The notes below the pieces were generated by a model. That model did no database searches. It was not told the origin of the DNA and saw only the letters and a list, made by a program, of their open reading frames with translations. Positions 2,589-27,485 of a DNA stretch of 64,000 nucleotides are shown here, in pieces. Position 1 is the first letter of the stretch, and each line of letters opens with the position of its first letter. The DNA lies in contig JALDZX010000008.1 of the NCBI GenBank assembly GCA_022813865.1, forward strand, positions 186,001 to 250,000, read 5' to 3'. This DNA comes from Xylographa opegraphella (lineage: Eukaryota). Made by a program: the position numbers and the translations under genes.

Positions 2589-3028
2589 TGACGGCCGCAA
2601 GATCTGATTTGCATGGGAGTGGCGCAATAGCTGGGAAATAGAGCCAACTGCATTATGAGAAATTCGGGGCTCGACCATGTATATAATATCTTTCGGAGCC
2701 GTTGCTCAAGAATTGTACTCAATCTAGGCTTGATTGCACAGACAAAGTTTGGTAGAGCCAAATTCTCTGATGGCTCAGTGCTACCTAAACTCAGCAGGGT
2801 ATCTATCGCGGTATCCTTCAGTGTGAAGTAACAACCCAAAGTCCCCAAACAATTTCCAGACACCAGTCAATTAAGACTGCGGGTTCTTGGTGCATTACCG
2901 CCGATATCCTTCCAGATGCATTTACTCTATCGTCTGAGCGTTGTTTTCCAAGTCATTTCAATCATAAAATAGCACGAAACTCATCAAGTATCCCGGTATA
3001 CAGAGTTGATACATAGATCAGAATATCG

Positions 3029-6000
3029 CTAGACCACCTGACGAAGAACAGGATATTGTTGGATCAGAGCGGGTTGGTTTTGGTATACGAATTTCACAAG
3101 CTGCACAAGTTGCTCTCGTGTTGTAGTCGTCAACTGAGCCTCTGGTGGACCCATGACGTGAGCGACGATAGGAAGAAGCTGTGGCGTCAGACCGAGCATG
3201 GTATCGTTACCAGAAGAGTCTAGAATGGTGCAAGTCAGATACAAGTAGATACAAGTATGGAGGATCATCGATGTGAAAACTTACAGAGCTTTATAATCAT
3301 GCTGAAAATTGGCTCGTTTTCCTCATAATCTTCCTTCAGAGGAAGAAGGCTGATGAGAGCCGGTAGAACTTCGCCGAGAGGAATATTTTCAGGATGCTTC
3401 ATGATCATCCGGCTTATACAACCCGCAGCGTTGTCCAGTTGCCTTGATTCTTGTGTCTGGAGGAGTGGTTCAAGCTTCATGAGAATTGGATTATATGCTC
3501 GCTTGATCTCATTGTCCTTATCCGAGTACTCGACGAGAAGTCCGATAGCGAAAGCAGCATTAGATTTAGCCAAGGGATCCTCGTCACTCATACGATGCAG
3601 TAAGACTTTGAGTAGGGTAGAAGTGAATGGGGTGACAGCTTTGCCCATTCCACGTATAGCGTCAGCAATAGTCCCTATGGCAGCGCTTCTTTGAGCGTTT
3701 TCGCTGCTACTGGCGTACTGTAGCAACGGCTTTTCTAGAACCTTCCACAATGGTGCGAATCGGTCGCCAATGGCGGCGGCGAGAGTTGCTATCACGTCCA
3801 GTGCTGAGTCGACTATGTACCAATCATCTTCCGAAGATTCTTGGGGGATATCGCCTTCCTCTGGGTCATCGTCGTCCTCCAATTGACATGGATGTGTCTT
3901 CTTAAGGAGCGCAAGCAGCACTTCCGCGGCTTTCTCGATGGTTTTATCCTCCGAGACTATGGCTGGCCCGCAAAGCTTGAGTGTGTCTGCAAGGCTGCGA
4001 TTGATCTCCAATATGACACTACTATATGCCCCGGTGATCAGTATCTTCGTAAGGTTATTGCCAAGTATGTGATAGTAACAAGGTATAGATTCAGGAACAG
4101 ATTCGTTTTCGCATCAATCGCAATTAGCGTCTGAGTGAGCTGGGATTAACGACATAGATGTCATCATAATACAAATTCACGCACAATATGCGTACTCTAG
4201 TTGACAGAAAAAGAAGGTGCGCTTACCTATCGTCCTCTTCTTTCCATAACTCAACGACAGCTTTCATCACAACATTGCCAAGTTTCTTGATATCATCTGA
4301 GGGTTGAACTTTCAGAGGCAACCCTGGCTGCCACTTCTGAAGATGTTCGTCCTGTAGCTGCCAAAGAGTCGCATAGGCTCGGAAAAGTGTTCCGATTGCG
4401 GCTCGTCTTACCAATTCGTAAGAACTACCCACAAGTTGCAGAATCAACTCGATACTCTTTGCCAAGTATGGAAGATACTCTTTCTTCGTGTGAGAGATGA
4501 GGTCCGCCATGGCTTCCAGAGCGACCTCCTGCTCTTCCACGACCGTTGAGATACCTGCCAGATCATCCCAATCAGCATCTTCGTCGTCAGTCATCTCGTC
4601 CATCTCGTCATATGAGTCGTCCCCGGAAATCTCGTCACCACTCTTGGACCCTACAACTTTCACCTTCTTTCCGGCAATGACGACTTCTTTACCAATAAGG
4701 TCATCGGCTGTTTCGCCCAACTCCACATCCACAGGTTCATCCACCTCTTCTAATGTCTTGAACAGCGCTTGTACCACACCTGGCAGGAAGGATTTGAAGT
4801 TTTCCTCATAAACTTTTGCCAAAGTACCCCAGAACAGATATCCAGTTTCTTTAAGCCTGGAATTGTCAAGATGTAGCCCTTCTTCAGTAGATTCCATCAA
4901 AGGTTGGACATAACGCTTGAATGCTTCTGGTCCAACTGCCGAAGCTAAGTTACCCATAGCATCAAGCGTCATACAACGTAAATCTAACTCTTCGTCGTCC
5001 TCCTTTATGTGAACAAATTCGGAAAGAGAGTTCATAGTCTGCTCAAAATAAGGCAGAAACGCGTCTTTGGCGCACTCGGCAATAGAGCCAACAGCACCAA
5101 TAGCAGCTGACTTGATTTTGTTTTCCGGATGAGCGAATAAGCGACTTAGATGTGGGACGATTCCGGGAAGATATTCCTTGATATCTTCAGGTTCCAAACC
5201 GTCGACCAGCGAGTCGATAGCGGAACAGCAATTGACAACAATGTTTATGTTGATTTTACCATCAGGTCCATCCAAATTGCCCATGGCGGCATTGAGGTTA
5301 TGTACCAATGCGGAAATATACTTTTGATGCTCTTTGCCCATGGTTTCGGAAAGGTGATCAGCAAGCAATTTTACTCCGTCTGTAGCTGCTTCGCGGACTT
5401 TGATCTCAGGGTCCTCTAGCAGTCGAAGTATGATCGGATTCAATTCCGTGAGCTGAGTATCAATGAATTCTGGCGCGCCTTCCGTAGAAGTACCCAACGC
5501 TGCAATACCGGCTTGTCTCTCGCGAGTGTTTGCGCTTACGGAGTACACCTTGAAAATCTGAAGCAAAGGAACTATAATCTGGCTTGGTGGAAGATTTTGA
5601 GCCATGAAAGTTATCAGGCTCAAGACCAGGAGGGCCGTTGAGAAGCTATCATCAGCGTCATCAGAATGATCTGCGGCCTCGGCCAGAATCTTCAGAAGAA
5701 CTGCAGTCAATTGCTCTCCGACTCTCAAACCTTGAAACTTGAGTTTGCGGTACAAGACACAATTGATCAAGAAATTTAATGCTTGACCGCGGGTCTCTTT
5801 TCCCAGACTCACTTCTGATGAGAGCTGTATCATGAACTGCACAAGGTCCCGGAAGTGCACATTCAAAAGTTTGGAATCGCAATCAAGCAAAGACTGGAAT
5901 ACTTCAAAGCCACGCATTATCCTGTCTTCGTCCCCGGCTTCAATTGCTTGCTTGAGTGTTGCTACCATGTTTGGCAGTGCACTTTGAAACATCTCGAGAG

Positions 6001-6660
6001 ATTCCTCATCATTGTCAGCATCGAGCAGGAAGCCCAGCTTACTGAGAGCCAACATGGTATTCATCCTAACATCTGCACTATCAGGGTCATGGATGGTTTT
6101 GCTGAACAATCCAAAGAGCTCATGGAACCGATGCATGAAGCCATCACCGATGGACTCAAGAATGGTGAAGAGAATATATGTGCTGACTTCCCGCTCCTCG
6201 GGACTCCCAGTCTCCGCAGCGTGTTGCAAAATTTCGGGAAGATCAACCCATTCCCCATTTTCAACGTCTATCTTTGCAATTTCAGAAATTACACGGGCAG
6301 CAGCATGGCGGACTATGGCAGTTCGTTCGCTGAGTGTTGACTGTAAAATATGGCCACGTATTTGTGCTTTGAGGGCAGCGGGCACTGCAGCCCAGTGTCT
6401 CCCGACAAGGGAACGCGCCTGAGTTGCAGCAAGTTGACGTAATTGGGGTGAATCATGCGAGGAGAGGATTTGGAGTAGAAGCGTTAACGATTGGGGGGAA
6501 GTGTAGTAATCTTTGCGTAGCGTATCTGTTGCTGCTTTGACGCGTGTTGTATCGGCTGTAGCAACGCATCAGCACTTTTGTAGAGTACTTCATTGGGCAC
6601 AAGACTCGACTTACGTGCCAGCACACTCTCGAGGAGTTGAAGAAATTTTGCCTGATCCAT
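3029..6660 (-). CDS. KAP123: Importin beta-4 / karyopherin Kap123 (HEAT repeats)
   Basis: Start MDQAKFLQLLESVLAPDTTRVKAAT at 6660. Introns 6614-6556, 4226-4022 and 3284-3220. HEAT-repeat helices, acidic insert, C-terminal DNAAGCISRMI and LPLKEDYEE motifs. Confidence 0.9.
4088..4172 (-). ncRNA. snR71: Intronic box C/D snoRNA, snR71-like (predicted guide for 25S rRNA Am2946, yeast numbering)
   Basis: Minus strand: box C ATGATGA (4167-4161), guide CCCAGCTCAC (4144-4135) + T + D' box CAGA (4133-4130), C'-like GATTGATG, box D CTGA (4094-4091). The guide is complementary to conserved LSU rRNA GUGAGCUGGG, and the D'+5 rule points to the A. Lies in the 205-nt KAP123 intron. Confidence 0.85.
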
Positions 6661-7061: not shown

Positions 7062-10000
7062 TCAGTAGTCATCGGAATCGTAGTCTTCTTCAGGTAGCAG
7101 TGCTCTATATCGTCTTGCAGCCATATCCTCGTCCAAACCACCATCAGACTCTGGGTCCCAGTAGCCTAGATTTGGCACGTTAGCCAACGTCGTCATACAG
7201 GAACTAAGCAAGAATGCATGGGTAGGATTGCTTACCGTCGCCTCCTACCAAGCTCAAAGCGACAGGTAGGAATATCAGTGCGTGTGTTGCTGCCCATCCG
7301 ACGAGCGCCAGCCAAACTCTAAAGTAGTAAATCTCGAAGATTTTGCTGCGTGTGAAGGCTAGCACTGACACTCCCAATAGTTTTGTTACAGTAATTCCGC
7401 TGAAAACGCTCCCACCAACATTTACAAGCGCTGCCCAGGCTCTGGCATCTCTGCCGTGGAACTGATTTTTGGCCGTCTCCATGACAGTACGCGATGGGAA
7501 CATGAAAGCGCGAGCTATGTGGGCGCAGAATTCGACACCAATCCCTACGCAGATAACGAGATTGACCAGTGAAATTGCATTCAAAGAAACATTCGCGAGC
7601 GCCATAGTGCCGATGATGTCGACAACTATCATGATGACAGTGAGGGTAATCACGGCTCCAGTGGCAAGGGAACCGAGTAGAATCGAAGAAATAATCAGTA
7701 TCAGCGTAAGCGCACAAGCTAGTAAAGAAGCTGTGAGATCAATGATCGAGGCGTATTGGTCGAAAAAAACGTAGAATTTCGAGTACGGGAAAACGGAAAT
7801 GCTTTGATCGGCACTAATGCCATCCGCAATCCGACGCGCAGAAGCATAGGCTGCTATGAATTCTGATTGAGTACGCAGAGGTGTATGGAAAGTTCGGAAA
7901 TGCGTTGCTGGTGTCGTGGTTCGGTCTGTATCGACAACAAGTGCAGTACTGTACGCTGCATTTCCCGCCAATGGACATGTATCAGTTGTGGGGGCTTCGA
8001 GCCATTTTTCTAGATAATGGATGAACTCGCCACCTTCCGGCATACCGTAAAGGGATACGTTCCAAGGCAGTGTCCGATCTTCGAAACATCCCTTTCCATG
8101 CTCCTGGCAGCAATTGTCACTTGACTCCACAGCAGGCTTCAGCCAATAAAAAAAGTCATCTATCCAGCTTGCAGTAGATCCTGAGATGTACGATACGTTG
8201 GATCGCTTAGATTCTTGTTCAAGGACATTGGCCAAAGAGAAAGTTTTGCAAGTTGAGAAGCGACCGCAAAGTTCTTGCTGATGCGTTCGATCGGTGACAT
8301 TGATGTCTCGTGTAACAAAGTAGACAGGCGGACCTGTATTGAAATACTTGTCCAAATCATTGAAGTAGTCAATCAGGTACGAACCAGTAGGTAAGGCAAT
8401 TCTTTGATCGAGCCCTAAGGCCACCTCGGGTATCAAAGATATTCCGGCTGCAAAGAATCCCAAGAACACGACCACGATACCAACTTTGACCTTACGATCC
8501 AATATTGTTGGCGCATAGGTCTTCCGTATAAACCGTTGGAGCATACTCTCGTCGTCCGACTTACAGCCAGCACCACCATGAGCTTGAAGGCCATTTGCTA
8601 CTCTAATCTTGATGAAAGGAACACAATCAACACGGTTGCTCTCGACGCGCCTCTGGTTCAGAGCAAGCACAGCCACAAACATTGTAACTTGTAGCACCGC
8701 ATTGATAAAAACAGCTCCTGCTGCGTATGCTGCAAAATTCTTCACGGCTGGCATACCCACGAACACACCAAGCGCGAATGCTATAGTTTCCGTGGAGGCT
8801 GACAGCAAGATACTTGGTCCCATTCTTCCAAGTGCTTTGGCGATTCGCGAGTCAATCTCCTCATCGGGATAAGCCTGATTTACTCTTTCAAACTCATGAA
8901 CAATAAGGAATATATTATCAACTCCTACAGCAAGAACGAGAAAAGGAATGACTTCGGCAATTATAAGTGTGACTTTTATGCCAGCCGCAGAAAACAGTCC
9001 CACAGATGCTGACACAGACATTAGAACAATAACGATGCCTGCGACTCCAAGGGAGAACTTCGATTGTACTACAGTGTTGCCTGGATTGTTTAGTAGAGAT
9101 CGGAGGGACAAACTGGCAGATCCCAACGCGAAAGAAGCGTAGATGAACATTATAATGTAGCTTATCACCACAATATTGGCATCCGTATTGGTGGATTGGT
9201 TCAGCTCTTCTTCCAGACTGATTTCGGTCGAGAACGACAAACGAAGACCTTTGTTTTCTGCTTCCTTCTGCACAGTCTGCAACAGTTCTTTCAACCTCGA
9301 CTCCCACTTCATCGCACGGCTTTCGGCTTCCGAACCTTGAGGATGATTCGAGATAACCCAAGTCACAATCATGGAATGAGAGTCTAAGATATCTCCAGTA
9401 CTCTCCCAGCCTCCAAGAACGATATCTTTGTCGATAGGTAACTGAAATGCAGGACGGCACGCTGTATCGCCTGGCGATTCTACACATTCTTGGATGTGTT
9501 TCCTCCATTGATGCGGGTAAGTCTTTTTAAAGCCCCCATCAGAATAGAAATAGCCTGTCACAGATTGCACCACACATGCATCTCCTGTCGGATTGAAACA
9601 TACATCAGCGAAGGACACGTCTCCATCTTCTGACTTGAGATTTGCTACTCTTTCTTCTACGTCTGCCCACCATGCCAAAGTGTTGAAAGACAGTACGGGC
9701 CCAGGATTCCCTGCTTGTGAATCGTTTGTAAGAAAAGCTTGTTCTGTCCTATAGAAGGGGCCGAAGTTTGTGTCAAAGAATACTTTTTCCTTGGCAGCAG
9801 CCGAAGATGGGCTGACCCACAAGTGTACAGGATCTGTTTCAATTTCGAAATTGAACCAGCCAAGACTGAGTAACCCGATAATAGCAACACTGATACCGAT
9901 TGTCATCAGCGGATATTGAGCGCAGCTGCTGCCTATTCTGCAGAACAATCTATCACAGTATACATTCAACCAGTATTGCCTTTGTGTACGATCAGAAATG

Positions 10001-11051
10001 ACTGAGTTATGGATAACGTCTCCTTCATCTTCGTCGTCGCTGGGAGCCGCGTCTTGAAGTAACTGCAGTCGTTCGCTTCTTCTCTGACTATGCCTTCGGT
10101 ATGCTACGTGGCCAATGACGGCGGTAATAGCTAAAAGCAGGAATACGCTGTAAATTAGAACAGCTGAGAAAGAAAGACAAGGTAGGACTCCAACATGGCA
10201 GTATCGCTCCGTTACTATCTCTGGCAGCGTCGGACAGACAGCTGGACAATCCACACATGTGCAGCGGAACGCTTCATCAGTGTCATTGCAGGATTTAGTG
10301 GGTAGATCGGACGCTTTCATGCCATCGAGCTCTCGACCTTCAGGTCGAGGGAAGTTGATCTGGAATGGACTGCCAACAAATTTTTTGTCCCCAAGGAATT
10401 TGAGGAACTGAGTATAGTTCTTGGCACCTCCTCCAATGAAGTCCATTGCTTTACCACCAGTTGCCCCGAACTTGATGTCTTTGCAGCTGTCGTAAAATGC
10501 TTTCCCATAATTGTCAGACCAAAGATTGTCCAACTCTGTGACGACCGTTTTCTTCGATGTTGACTGAGCAGTTTCGGTAACATTGACAAAAAGGGACTGG
10601 TCAGGAGAGCAAGTGAAGGTACAAAACAGATTGAAGAAGTTTTCTTTGCAAGCGGGGCATGAGGAGATTATGTTTTCCGCGCTTTTGAGGTTGCTGCCAA
10701 GTGCTTCAATCTACCAATACTTGAGTCAGCCTAGGATTTTAAGGAGATTTCTTGGGACTCTACCTGTTCATCATCGCAACATATGGCACCATCATTCCAT
10801 TTTTCTCCACAAATACCAACCAGTTTCTTCCTTGTTGCTTCGGTAGGTTCCTTTGCGAGGTCATTGTCTGGGCAGGGCAGCTGTTTGCCAAGGAACCCTG
10901 TTTTTCCACACTGTCCTCTAATGGCACACCTGCCAATCTCGTGTTTTATAATCGGCTCATCCCCAAAAACCGGAGAGCATAAGCTCAATAAGACCAGAGC
11001 GGTGAGAAGTAGACAGGATATAAGCCTGGGAGTGGCCGACGATTCCTCCAT
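7062..11051 (-). CDS. NCR1: Niemann-Pick type C1-related sterol transporter (patched/RND, sterol-sensing domain)
   Basis: Signal peptide and Cys-rich N-terminal domain (RCAIRGQCG...LPCPDN), EVIPFLVLAVGVDNIF SSD motif, GIGVEFCAHI motif. Introns ~10763-10711 and ~7235-7167. Last exon ends ...DYDSDDY* at 7062. Confidence 0.95.
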
Positions 11052-26093: not shown

Positions 26094-27485
26094 TCACCCT
26101 CTCCACGCCCGCGTCATCTCCACCCTTCCCCGTGTCCCCGGTCCTAGCGGAGGGTGCGGACCGACGGCTCTTTCCTCAACCTCCACGCGCTTCGACCCAT
26201 TCCCGATATTAGTCAGCTGCACGAAGCCTTCTTCATTGCTGTTATTCATCCGCCGACCAATGGCAATAAAGCGATTAGTCAGGCCGTTGTTCGGATCCGC
26301 GGCTGACGAGTGCTGGCCGTCGCGCGGGCTGGCGGGGTGGACGGAGCCGGTGGCGACGGCGCGGGGGAGGGGCCAGAAGGCCGGGACGGAGGCGGAGACG
26401 ATGCCGATGTGGACTTCGATGTTGGTCCAGATGCAGGTGGGGACGTATGTCCCTGTTGGATGTGAGCTGGGTTATGTGGAGCGCGAAAAGGGAGTGAGGG
26501 GATGAGATGAGGGAGTGGGTATGGCAACAGACATACATGTGACGTCCTGGTTTGTGAGGTTCAGTAGTACGGTCAGGCGGATGATGGAGACCACAGCGAC
26601 GCTGTTGATTTGGTTAGTTGTTTTCGTGTATCGCTGCCACGATCCGGTATGTCCTTACAATCCACCAAGCGTGAAAACCAATATGACAGCGATCTTCTTG
26701 GGCCACGCTACTTGCAGCCACCATATGTATGGCAGCGGCATCGTCAAGAGCGCAATGTCAGTGACGATATTGGGTACCGCAATGCCGATGAAGAAGCTGT
26801 GGATGTTGATACAGCGACCTGTAACGCTTGGATCCCACATGGCGTTCACGGGTACGTACGAAAACATTGCTGCGCCCTCCTTTGTACATGATCAGCGATT
26901 GGCGCCCCTGGTGTCGTCACCGGAGATATCTACCACGTATAGCACCCAGCAACCGATTAGGCCTGCGACAAGGTAAAGAGGTATCTGGAAACTGGGGACT
27001 TGGAAGATCCGACTATAGTAGAAGAGGATGGAGAATTTAGTTGCAGCAATAGGTAATGGGTATAGTATCTCGAAGGCGTAAAGACACTTGTAGAACGTAA
27101 GGACCGAAGGAGCGCCAGCGACCTCGGCATGTTGGCCAAAGTTGTGTGATACCACTATATGAGAAATGAGCTCGATGACAATTTGGATTTGCAGGTATTC
27201 TTGTGGGCCCTACAGTAGAGGGTCAAAGCGAGAGGTCCCAATGCAAGTACCTGGAGACACAATGTCAGGATTTGTCTTCGATGACAGGCGAATGCGGCAT
27301 ACAAGAGCAAGAAGAATCACAAAGTCGTCCCACCAGAACGAAGCCTTGATCACAGCACGTGAAAGGAACCGCAAGCAGACAGCGATTACTGCCAGCGAGA
27401 AGCACATGATTGCGATGATATCAAGCTTAGGCCCTTGAGTAGCATATAGATCCTCGGAGGACAGCGTGCTCGTATTCGAATCCAT
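26094..27485 (-). CDS. PTH11-like (fungal rhodopsin domain) integral membrane protein
   Basis: Multi-exon. VCLRFLSR...WWDDF, TKFSILFYYSRIF, NIVTDIALLTMPLPYIWWLQ...KKI, WTNIEVHIGIVSASVP. Several short GT-AG introns were traced. Confidence 0.8.

Follow-up and report, generated by a model that had tools for sequence, protein, structure and literature searches.

KAP123 and its long second intron

We analysed a stretch of DNA of 64,000 nucleotides (nt) from Xylographa opegraphella, a lichen-forming member of the Lecanoromycetes (positions 186,001 to 250,000 of contig JALDZX010000008.1, assembly GCA_022813865.1; the whole stretch is hereafter called the window). Its minus strand carries a gene for the importin KAP123, and the second intron of that gene encloses a predicted box C/D small nucleolar RNA (snoRNA), which is the subject of this report.

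The KAP123 stretch at 4227-6568 (exon 2) is 100% identical to P0001, a hypothetical protein of X. opegraphella of 1100 amino acids (aa). Among solved structures, Kap123 (PDB code 5vch) matches best, with an E-value (E) of 2.5e-79 over exon 2 and of 5.8e-33 over exon 3, and importin-4 comes second. Pfam assigns importin-beta and HEAT-repeat families to the host protein, and its relatives carry the source names karyopherin Kap123 or importin-4. Judged by these structure matches, families and names, the host gene is the KAP123/importin-4 orthologue. Removal of the introns at 6614-6556, 4226-4022 and 3284-3220 yields the annotated P0001 (1100 aa) letter for letter. Because splicing at 4226/4022 rebuilds this protein exactly, intron 2 is 205 nt long, which makes it 3.2-3.5 times the length of the other two (59 and 65 nt) and agrees with the roughly threefold excess given in a preliminary description of this DNA.

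A box C/D snoRNA inside the intron

The motifs listed in the preliminary description are all present on the minus strand of KAP123 intron 2. Boxes C, D', C' and D, the guide and the terminal stem follow one another in canonical order and with canonical spacing (Table 1). As in the box C/D class, box C lies near the 5' end and box D near the 3' end, with 77 nt from the start of the one to the end of the other, and a terminal stem closes the molecule (4 of 5 positions paired in the window). The class also has an antisense element, at least 10 nt long and beside D or D', whose fifth pair marks the target; here 10 perfect pairs lie beside D' and the target A stands at +5. The mature RNA is probably about 85 nt long, spanning roughly 4171-4087. 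TGATGA..CCCAGCTCACNCNGA..CTGA, the combined pattern of boxes and guide, is found a single time in the window and never in 100 dinucleotide-preserving shuffles. Split C' boxes like the one seen here have been described for yeast snR69 and snR71 (PMC3116282).

The guide core CCCAGCTCAC has a second copy in the window, at 26462-26471, which we set aside as chance: it sits in a short intron, has no accompanying boxes and is not matched by the covariance model described below. The surrounding stretch at 26452-26535 on the minus strand looks like a short intron (GTATGT...CAG), with the copy near its 3' end and no C/D boxes.

The guide is predicted to select the A methylated by snR71 in yeast

The large subunit (LSU) ribosomal RNA (rRNA) used as target was a fragment, contig L069, which stood in for the species' own 25S rRNA; its nt 1-83 are identical to positions 2922-3004 of the Rfam LSU_rRNA_eukarya consensus. 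The guide pairs with GUGAGCUGGG-U-UUAG (L069 nt 31-45) through 10 perfect pairs, a U:U mismatch and 4 further pairs, 14 of 15 positions overall. Counting upstream from box D', U4138 comes fifth, and its partner is the A of GUGAGC. The preliminary description had proposed that the D'+5 rule selects this A, the yeast snR71 site (A2946), and that proposal holds. Selection of the A equivalent to yeast A2946 is one mark of the group of snR71, U29 and Neurospora crassa CD27, and by its pairing the window RNA selects it. The register is not peculiar to X. opegraphella: the one-nt spacer and the position of D' are identical in all 42 distinct introns compared (a set which, in this and all later counts over 42, includes the window), and D' ends in GA in 40 of them.

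In yeast, A2946 is methylated by snR71 and C2948 by snR69 (PMC10899779), and U29 is given as the human and plant counterpart of snR71 (PMC3511168). The target nucleotide appears in these sources as yeast A2946 (Am2943 in the older numbering), human A4493 and Arabidopsis A2936 (PMC3511168, PMC10899779).

The contig that supplied the target is itself unusual. L069:1-452 comes from a viral collection; its first 120 or so nt match eukaryotic LSU rRNA up to the region of the sarcin-ricin loop, and what follows is AT-rich, with no relation to rRNA. Either a chimeric assembly or an element that had inserted into ribosomal DNA could explain this.

The RNA is kept in orthologous introns

Twenty KAP123 proteins were aligned, and the alignment was used to retrieve 68 loci with KAP123 relatives from metagenome contigs; the site of the intron was then located in each by tblastn with the 150 residues on either side of the window intron. 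Both exon flanks are covered in 59 of the 68 loci. A gap of 179-292 nt falls at the same codon in 52 of these 59, in six the gap spans one or two codons, and the remaining one (L061) has an intron of 61 nt. The 41 distinct long introns all show an identical arrangement of boxes and guide.

A covariance model, R1, was built from 34 distinct snoRNAs of these orthologues, with 7 duplicates dropped and the window left out. R1 matches the window at 4173-4085 (86.8 bits, E 1.2e-17), and this is its sole match on both strands of the 64 kilobases (kb). On the 68 loci (602 kb) R1 gives 54 matches, one per locus, all of them on the KAP123 strand and none elsewhere: they comprise the 52 long introns (52/52) and L030 and L036, in which only the downstream flank is covered. 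The 14 loci with no R1 match are six intron-free contigs, L061 and seven contigs that end before the site. Alignment of the orthologous introns, suggested in the preliminary description as a check, thus shows boxes and guide kept in every long intron (52/52 loci), and together with the R1 match it bears out the proposal of a real, conserved box C/D snoRNA within the KAP123 intron.

Chaetomiaceae-like and Pleosporales-like contigs are among the loci that carry the RNA. L055, where R1 scores 63.5 bits, encodes a KAP123 that shares 89% identity with the Chaetomium strumarium protein and 74% with the N. crassa one; the KAP123 proteins of L011, L013, L052 and L053 are 87-97% identical to that of Alternaria rosae, and in a further group, that of L045, KAP123 shares 88% identity with its Meristemomyces frigidus counterpart. 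Because the RNA is found in the window, in the Alternaria-like and Meristemomyces-like loci and in L055, it is, by these protein identities, kept in the same KAP123 intron across Lecanoromycetes, Dothideomycetes and Sordariomycetes.

Six contigs (L008, L022, L034, L042, L062 and L063) are of about messenger RNA length and free of introns, with exons joined exactly at the splice junction of the window. Two of the six share 84-87% identity with proteins of Pleosporales, close relatives of which carry the intron, and no poly(A) tail is visible in any of the six contigs. They look like transcript assemblies, which would mean that the intron is spliced out in relatives.

Box C varies at its first positions. 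Across the 42 distinct introns it reads ATGATGA in 17, AAGATGA in 14, AGGATGA in 8, GTGATGA in 2 and CTGATGA in 1. Forms with A or G in place of the first U of UGAUGA (AAGAUGA and AGGAUGA, e.g. L035:368-374) account for 22 of the 42 and are present in every locus that matches a Pleosporales KAP123. Box D' reads CAGA in 26, CCGA in 10, CTGA and TTGA in 2 each, and CTTA and CAAA in 1 each.

Selection on sequence and structure

Over 851 pairs of orthologues, the median identity of the snoRNA segment is 0.76, against 0.50 for the 5' flank of the intron and 0.60 for the 3' flank. In the hairpin that separates D' from C', compensatory changes affect all 4 consensus pairs, and 97.1% of cells are paired over 36 sequences. 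The inner pairs of the terminal stem likewise change in a compensatory way in 14/36 and 10/36 sequences: one is CG in 11, AU in 10, GC in 3 and UA in 1, and the other is GC in 15, UA in 6, AU in 2 and CG in 2. The covariation score of the whole structure is 0.353, compared with 0.163 for shuffled columns (none of 500 reach 0.353) and at most 0.081 with slid partners.

The distance to the branch point is nearly constant

A CTRAY motif was found in 39 of the 42 introns. In these, the end of box D lies 50-63 nt from the branch A, with a median of 54 nt and 53 nt in the window; the interval between the 5' splice site and box C, by contrast, ranges over 34-70 nt. Human box C/D snoRNAs lie preferentially about 50 nt upstream of the branch point (Hirose and Steitz 2001, as summarised in PMC5519232). 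Because box D keeps 50-63 nt away from the branch point, the geometry suggests, by analogy with mammals, that assembly of the small nucleolar ribonucleoprotein (snoRNP) may be coupled to splicing here too.

Features of the intron and a conserved element in the position of a possible second guide

Table 1. Coordinates in the window of the KAP123 introns and flanking exons and of the elements of the intron-encoded snoRNA.
Feature	Position	Strand	Evidence or remark
KAP123 intron 1	6614-6556	minus	59 nt; reconstruction of P0001
KAP123 exon 2, upstream flank of host intron	4227..6555	minus	structure and Pfam matches; reconstruction of P0001
KAP123 intron 2, snoRNA host	4022..4226	minus	205 nt; GTAAGC...CTGAT...TATAG; exon frames join ..EEDD-S-SVILEINR
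5' splice site GTAAGC	4226-4221	minus	sequence
Box C/D snoRNA, span matched by R1	4085..4173	minus	86.8 bits, E 1.2e-17
Terminal stem, 5' half	4169-4173	minus	4/5 positions paired with 3' half
Box C AUGAUGA	4161..4167	minus	GAUGA invariant in 34/34 orthologues
D' guide UUAAU-CCCAGCUCAC	4135..4149	minus	CCCAGCUCAC invariant in 34/34 orthologues
Guide core, 10-mer CCCAGCTCAC (DNA letters)	4144-4135	minus	sequence
Spacer T (U in RNA), 1 nt between guide and D'	4134	minus	sequence
Box D' CAGA	4130..4133	minus	terminal GA in 40/42 distinct introns
Short hairpin between D' and C', CGC-UAAUU-GCG	4119..4129	minus	compensatory changes in 4/4 consensus pairs
Degenerate split box C' UGAUGCGA, consensus UGnnGnGA	4109..4116	minus	G62, G65 and A68 invariant in alignment A2
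TGATG, C'-like	4116-4112	minus	sequence
Conserved AAACGAAUC and variable tail, D-guide position	4095..4108	minus	CGA nearly invariant
Box D CUGA	4091..4094	minus	GA invariant in 34 orthologues
Terminal stem, 3' half	4086..4090	minus	4/5 positions paired with 5' half
Branch site CTGAT, branch A 4038	4037..4041	minus	53 nt after end of box D
3' splice site AG, end of TATAG	4023-4022	minus	sequence
KAP123 exon 3, downstream flank of host intron	3285..4021	minus	structure and Pfam matches; reconstruction of P0001
KAP123 intron 3	3284-3220	minus	65 nt; reconstruction of P0001

A second element, GAAARCGAAU, follows box C' and is conserved among orthologues, with its CGA nearly invariant. In the window it could form 13 pairs with LSU GACAGGUUAGUUUU, with one mismatch and G:U pairs included (z about -2.1). 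Over 36 orthologues, extra pairing of the element with LSU GGUUAGUUUU has a mean z of +0.10, and the idea is not established; values of about -2 to -2.7 are confined to the window, L009 and L047, with 13-14 pairs to LSU GAGACAGGUUAGUUUUA, 20-36 nt 3' of the target. A helix between GAAARCGAAU and a conserved UCGUU on the 5' side of the guide is likewise not established: 85-91% of its cells are paired, but the columns are nearly invariant (one double change), with a mean z of -0.85. Additional pairing of a broadly similar sort has been described for snR69 and snR71 in yeasts (PMC3116282).

Nine loci (L020, L023, L044, L045, L048, L060, L067, L054 and L056) have a different, well-conserved sequence, UAGAGGCUGUUU, just upstream of box D (e.g. 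L045:8442-8531). Because the KAP123 of L045 is so close to that of M. frigidus, this group can be placed, by protein identity, in the Dothideomycetes outside Pleosporales. The element suggests that a second guide, at box D, may have been gained in that lineage; its complement is absent from the 125-nt LSU fragment examined.

Genes next to KAP123

The plus strand carries, at 1989-2588, a gene for the pre-rRNA-processing protein TSR2 (Pfam PF10273, E 1.7e-31) that converges with the 3' end of KAP123. The preliminary description had set the guide RNA next to TSR2, which is true of the window; as a conserved arrangement it fails. We looked for a TSR2 relative within about 5 kb of KAP123 in the 35 loci whose downstream flank exceeds 2.5 kb, and it was found only in the group of L001-L004, L006 and L007, in L005 and in L019. 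Because so few of the 35 loci show one, the adjacency is local to some lineages.

On its other side KAP123 adjoins a stop-to-stop open frame of 1168 aa (window 7204-10710, minus strand) with many hydrophobic stretches, as judged by eye.

Identity of the RNA and the case against it

We consider it highly probable that KAP123 intron 2 gives rise to a box C/D snoRNA of canonical type, some 85 nt in length. It would be the orthologue of N. crassa CD27 and would correspond in function to yeast snR71 and to human and plant U29 (SNORD29). Several observations weigh against this identification. A search with the snR71 and SNORD29 models had been proposed as a check in the preliminary description, and it failed: there are 0 matches at gathering score in the 64-kb window, and by that score the RNA belongs neither to RF00479 (snR71) nor to RF00070 (SNORD29), which share clan CL00051 with snR69. 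A search of 451 bases at permissive threshold has snR69 (RF00475) as its best sub-threshold match; it spans 4171-4089 and the entire model, with 23.8 bits where the cut-off is 50 and an E of 0.09, and this weak match favours snR69 and not snR71; snR69 is also the only member of the clan reported at E <= 10 on the window. At 13 orthologous loci, Rfam returned 0 matches at E <= 1. The RF00479 and RF00070 models are built mainly from yeasts, animals and plants.

The molecule itself has weak points as well. The terminal stem of the window contains a mismatch, and a fixed register pairs only 52.8% of the terminal-stem cells across orthologues because the register of the stem shifts between lineages. 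Box C' is degenerate. The fold of the single sequence is unremarkable (z -0.47), as is usual for box C/D snoRNAs. At one locus, L061, the intron lies at exactly the same codon (2316-2376), measures 61 nt and holds no snoRNA, and there is no R1 match anywhere in that 4.3-kb contig; in the L061 lineage the RNA seems either to have been lost or to have moved elsewhere, and because its intron lacks the RNA, the association of KAP123 with the snoRNA can evidently be lost. Among sequencing runs, the stretch was located in a single DNA run, possibly the source of the assembly, and in no run of RNA. Finally, the orthology with N. crassa CD27, like the sharing of its host gene, is inferred.

One alternative, that the motifs came together by chance in a long intron which yields no RNA product, would fit the silence of Rfam at its thresholds. 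It is at odds with the absence of the combined pattern from all 100 shuffles, with the match to an independently built model (E 1.2e-17), with the presence of the RNA in 52/52 long orthologous introns and with the compensatory changes of its base pairs. The conservation seen in the compared sequences already refutes it, and its probability is negligible.

A different guide would be a more serious competitor. The RNA could be the equivalent of snR69 and direct methylation of the C two nt 3' of the A (yeast C2948), instead of that A or besides it, so that one RNA would replace two yeast guides. The guide pairing spans both nucleotides, the best Rfam match, sub-threshold as it is, is to the full snR69 model (23.8 bits, E 0.09), and N. 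crassa CD27 is predicted to guide both Am2904 and Cm2906 through one element, being the sole RNA listed for both (PMC2780460). What speaks against it is the register. To place C at +5, as in snR69, box D' would have to lie two nt earlier, and the sequence there reads CUCA, CUCC, CUCU, CUUU or CGCA (CUCA in the window), in every case lacking GA, whereas the register that selects A keeps NNGA in 40/42 introns. The snR69 consensus guide, moreover, ends ..CCCAGCUC-U-UCGA, with G at +5, and so differs in register from ..CCCAGCUCAC-U-CAGA in the window, where the target at +5 is A. We therefore regard action on the C as rather unlikely. Because the D' register selects A, and the register for C lacks GA, the RNA is by its predicted target of the snR71/U29 type, despite the weak Rfam score in favour of snR69.

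It is also conceivable that the element acts mainly in cis on the expression of KAP123, with snoRNP assembly or RNA structure steering splicing, and not as a stable guide in trans. Retention of the RNA in the same intron of the same gene across three classes and the tightly constrained distance to the branch point would suit such a role, and cis-regulatory roles of intronic snoRNAs have been described in animals (PMC11028025). The part that does not vary, however, is the rRNA antisense element with its boxes, not the sequence adjacent to the splice signals; the Neurospora relative accumulates as an RNA of 85 nt (PMC2780460); and splicing-coupled snoRNP assembly already accounts for the distance constraint. 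A cis effect could coexist with guide function, but nothing observed here needs it, and as the main role of the element it seems very improbable.

Proposed mechanism

If the RNA is the trans-acting guide that we favour, it would be transcribed within the KAP123 pre-messenger RNA, and Snu13, Nop58, Nop56 and Nop1 (fibrillarin) would assemble on its C/D and C'/D' motifs during splicing. The excised lariat would then be debranched and trimmed by exonucleases back to the snoRNP, leaving the RNA of about 85 nt. Its D' guide is expected to pair, in the nucleolus, with GUGAGCUGGG(U)UUAG, a stretch of domain V immediately 3' of the A loop. Nop1 would then add a 2'-O-methyl group to the A that faces the fifth nucleotide before D' (yeast A2946).

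A more ambitious scenario combines several of these points: the KAP123 intron would have become the fixed home of the guide before the three classes diverged, the spacing of about 54 nt would result from splicing-coupled assembly, a single RNA would serve both A2946 and C2948 with the help of GAAARCGAAU, and the guide would be co-regulated with its host, which imports ribosomal proteins, as one unit in the making of ribosomes. Taken as a whole, we think this combination unlikely to be correct.

The analysis adds an apparently unannotated snoRNA to the genome of a lichen fungus and explains why the host KAP123 intron is about three times as long as its neighbours. For annotation, it means that the Rfam models of the clan miss the whole Pezizomycotina branch, which a model made from the orthologous introns detects easily. 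The occurrence of the RNA in the same intron in three fungal classes, at a spacing of 50-63 nt, is also a natural data set in which the mammalian rule of splicing-coupled assembly can be looked at in fungi. The known picture of snoRNA biology is unchanged by the finding.

Comparison with known systems

The RNA family and its intronic setting are already known: intronic placement is the rule in filamentous ascomycetes, and N. crassa CD27 was cloned there. Only two facts are modestly new: the RNA has kept to the KAP123 intron, and its distance from the branch point is fixed. Our literature search found no report of a fungal KAP123 or importin gene as a snoRNA host, a search that did not extend to the supplements of Liu et al. 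2009 and Canzler et al. 2018, which may name the host of N. crassa CD27. The main text of Canzler et al. 2018 makes no mention of snR71, snR69, CD27 or the host gene.

Yeast snR71 is independently transcribed and not intronic, and human SNORD29 resides in a non-coding host gene. Both yeast snR71 (RF00479) and human and plant U29/SNORD29 (RF00070) share with the window RNA the target nucleotide and the use of a D' guide, and yet no model of clan CL00051 reaches its gathering score on it. Yeast snR69 (RF00475) resembles it in having an overlapping antisense element (CCCAGCUC), a similar length and a split C' box; its D' register differs by two nt and selects C2948, whereas the window RNA selects A, and the match of 23.8 bits is far below 50. 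Dictyostelium DdR11 (RF01561) has the consensus ..CAGCUCAC-A-CCGA, which is the register of guide, spacer and D' seen in the window as CAGCUCAC-U-CAGA, but it scores only 13.5 bits against a cut-off of 65 and the remainder of the molecule cannot be aligned with the window RNA.

The setting in the intron recalls mammals, where intronic box C/D snoRNAs occur one per intron and about 50 nt before the branch point; the fungal counterparts lie 50-63 nt before it in 39 introns. The fungal host introns differ in being short (174-237 nt), and mammals have a proposed coupling factor, IBP160/Aquarius.

The closest known relative is N. crassa CD27. In Liu et al. (2009, BMC Genomics 10:515, PMC2780460; sequences in the GenBank range EU780925-EU780999), 45 of 55 box C/D snoRNAs of N. 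crassa are intron-encoded, and CD27 is listed as an 85-nt intronic RNA from chromosome VI obtained from a library of complementary DNA (Table 1 of that paper), with one D' element predicted for both 26S-Am2904 (homologues snR71 and U29) and Cm2906 (snR69 and snoR69Y); its host gene is unnamed in the main text. Because L055, which resembles Sordariales, carries the RNA in its KAP123 intron, CD27 very probably lies in the KAP123 intron of Neurospora too. CD27 and the window RNA differ in the extent of pairing, with 15 pairs and 0 mismatches reported for the former (PMC2780460) and 10 perfect pairs, one U:U mismatch and 4 pairs in the latter. They are alike in being encoded in an intron of a filamentous ascomycete as a single RNA of about 85 nt, with a D' guide to the LSU A of the snR71/U29 site, and the RNA of the X. 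opegraphella window is most likely the orthologue of N. crassa CD27.

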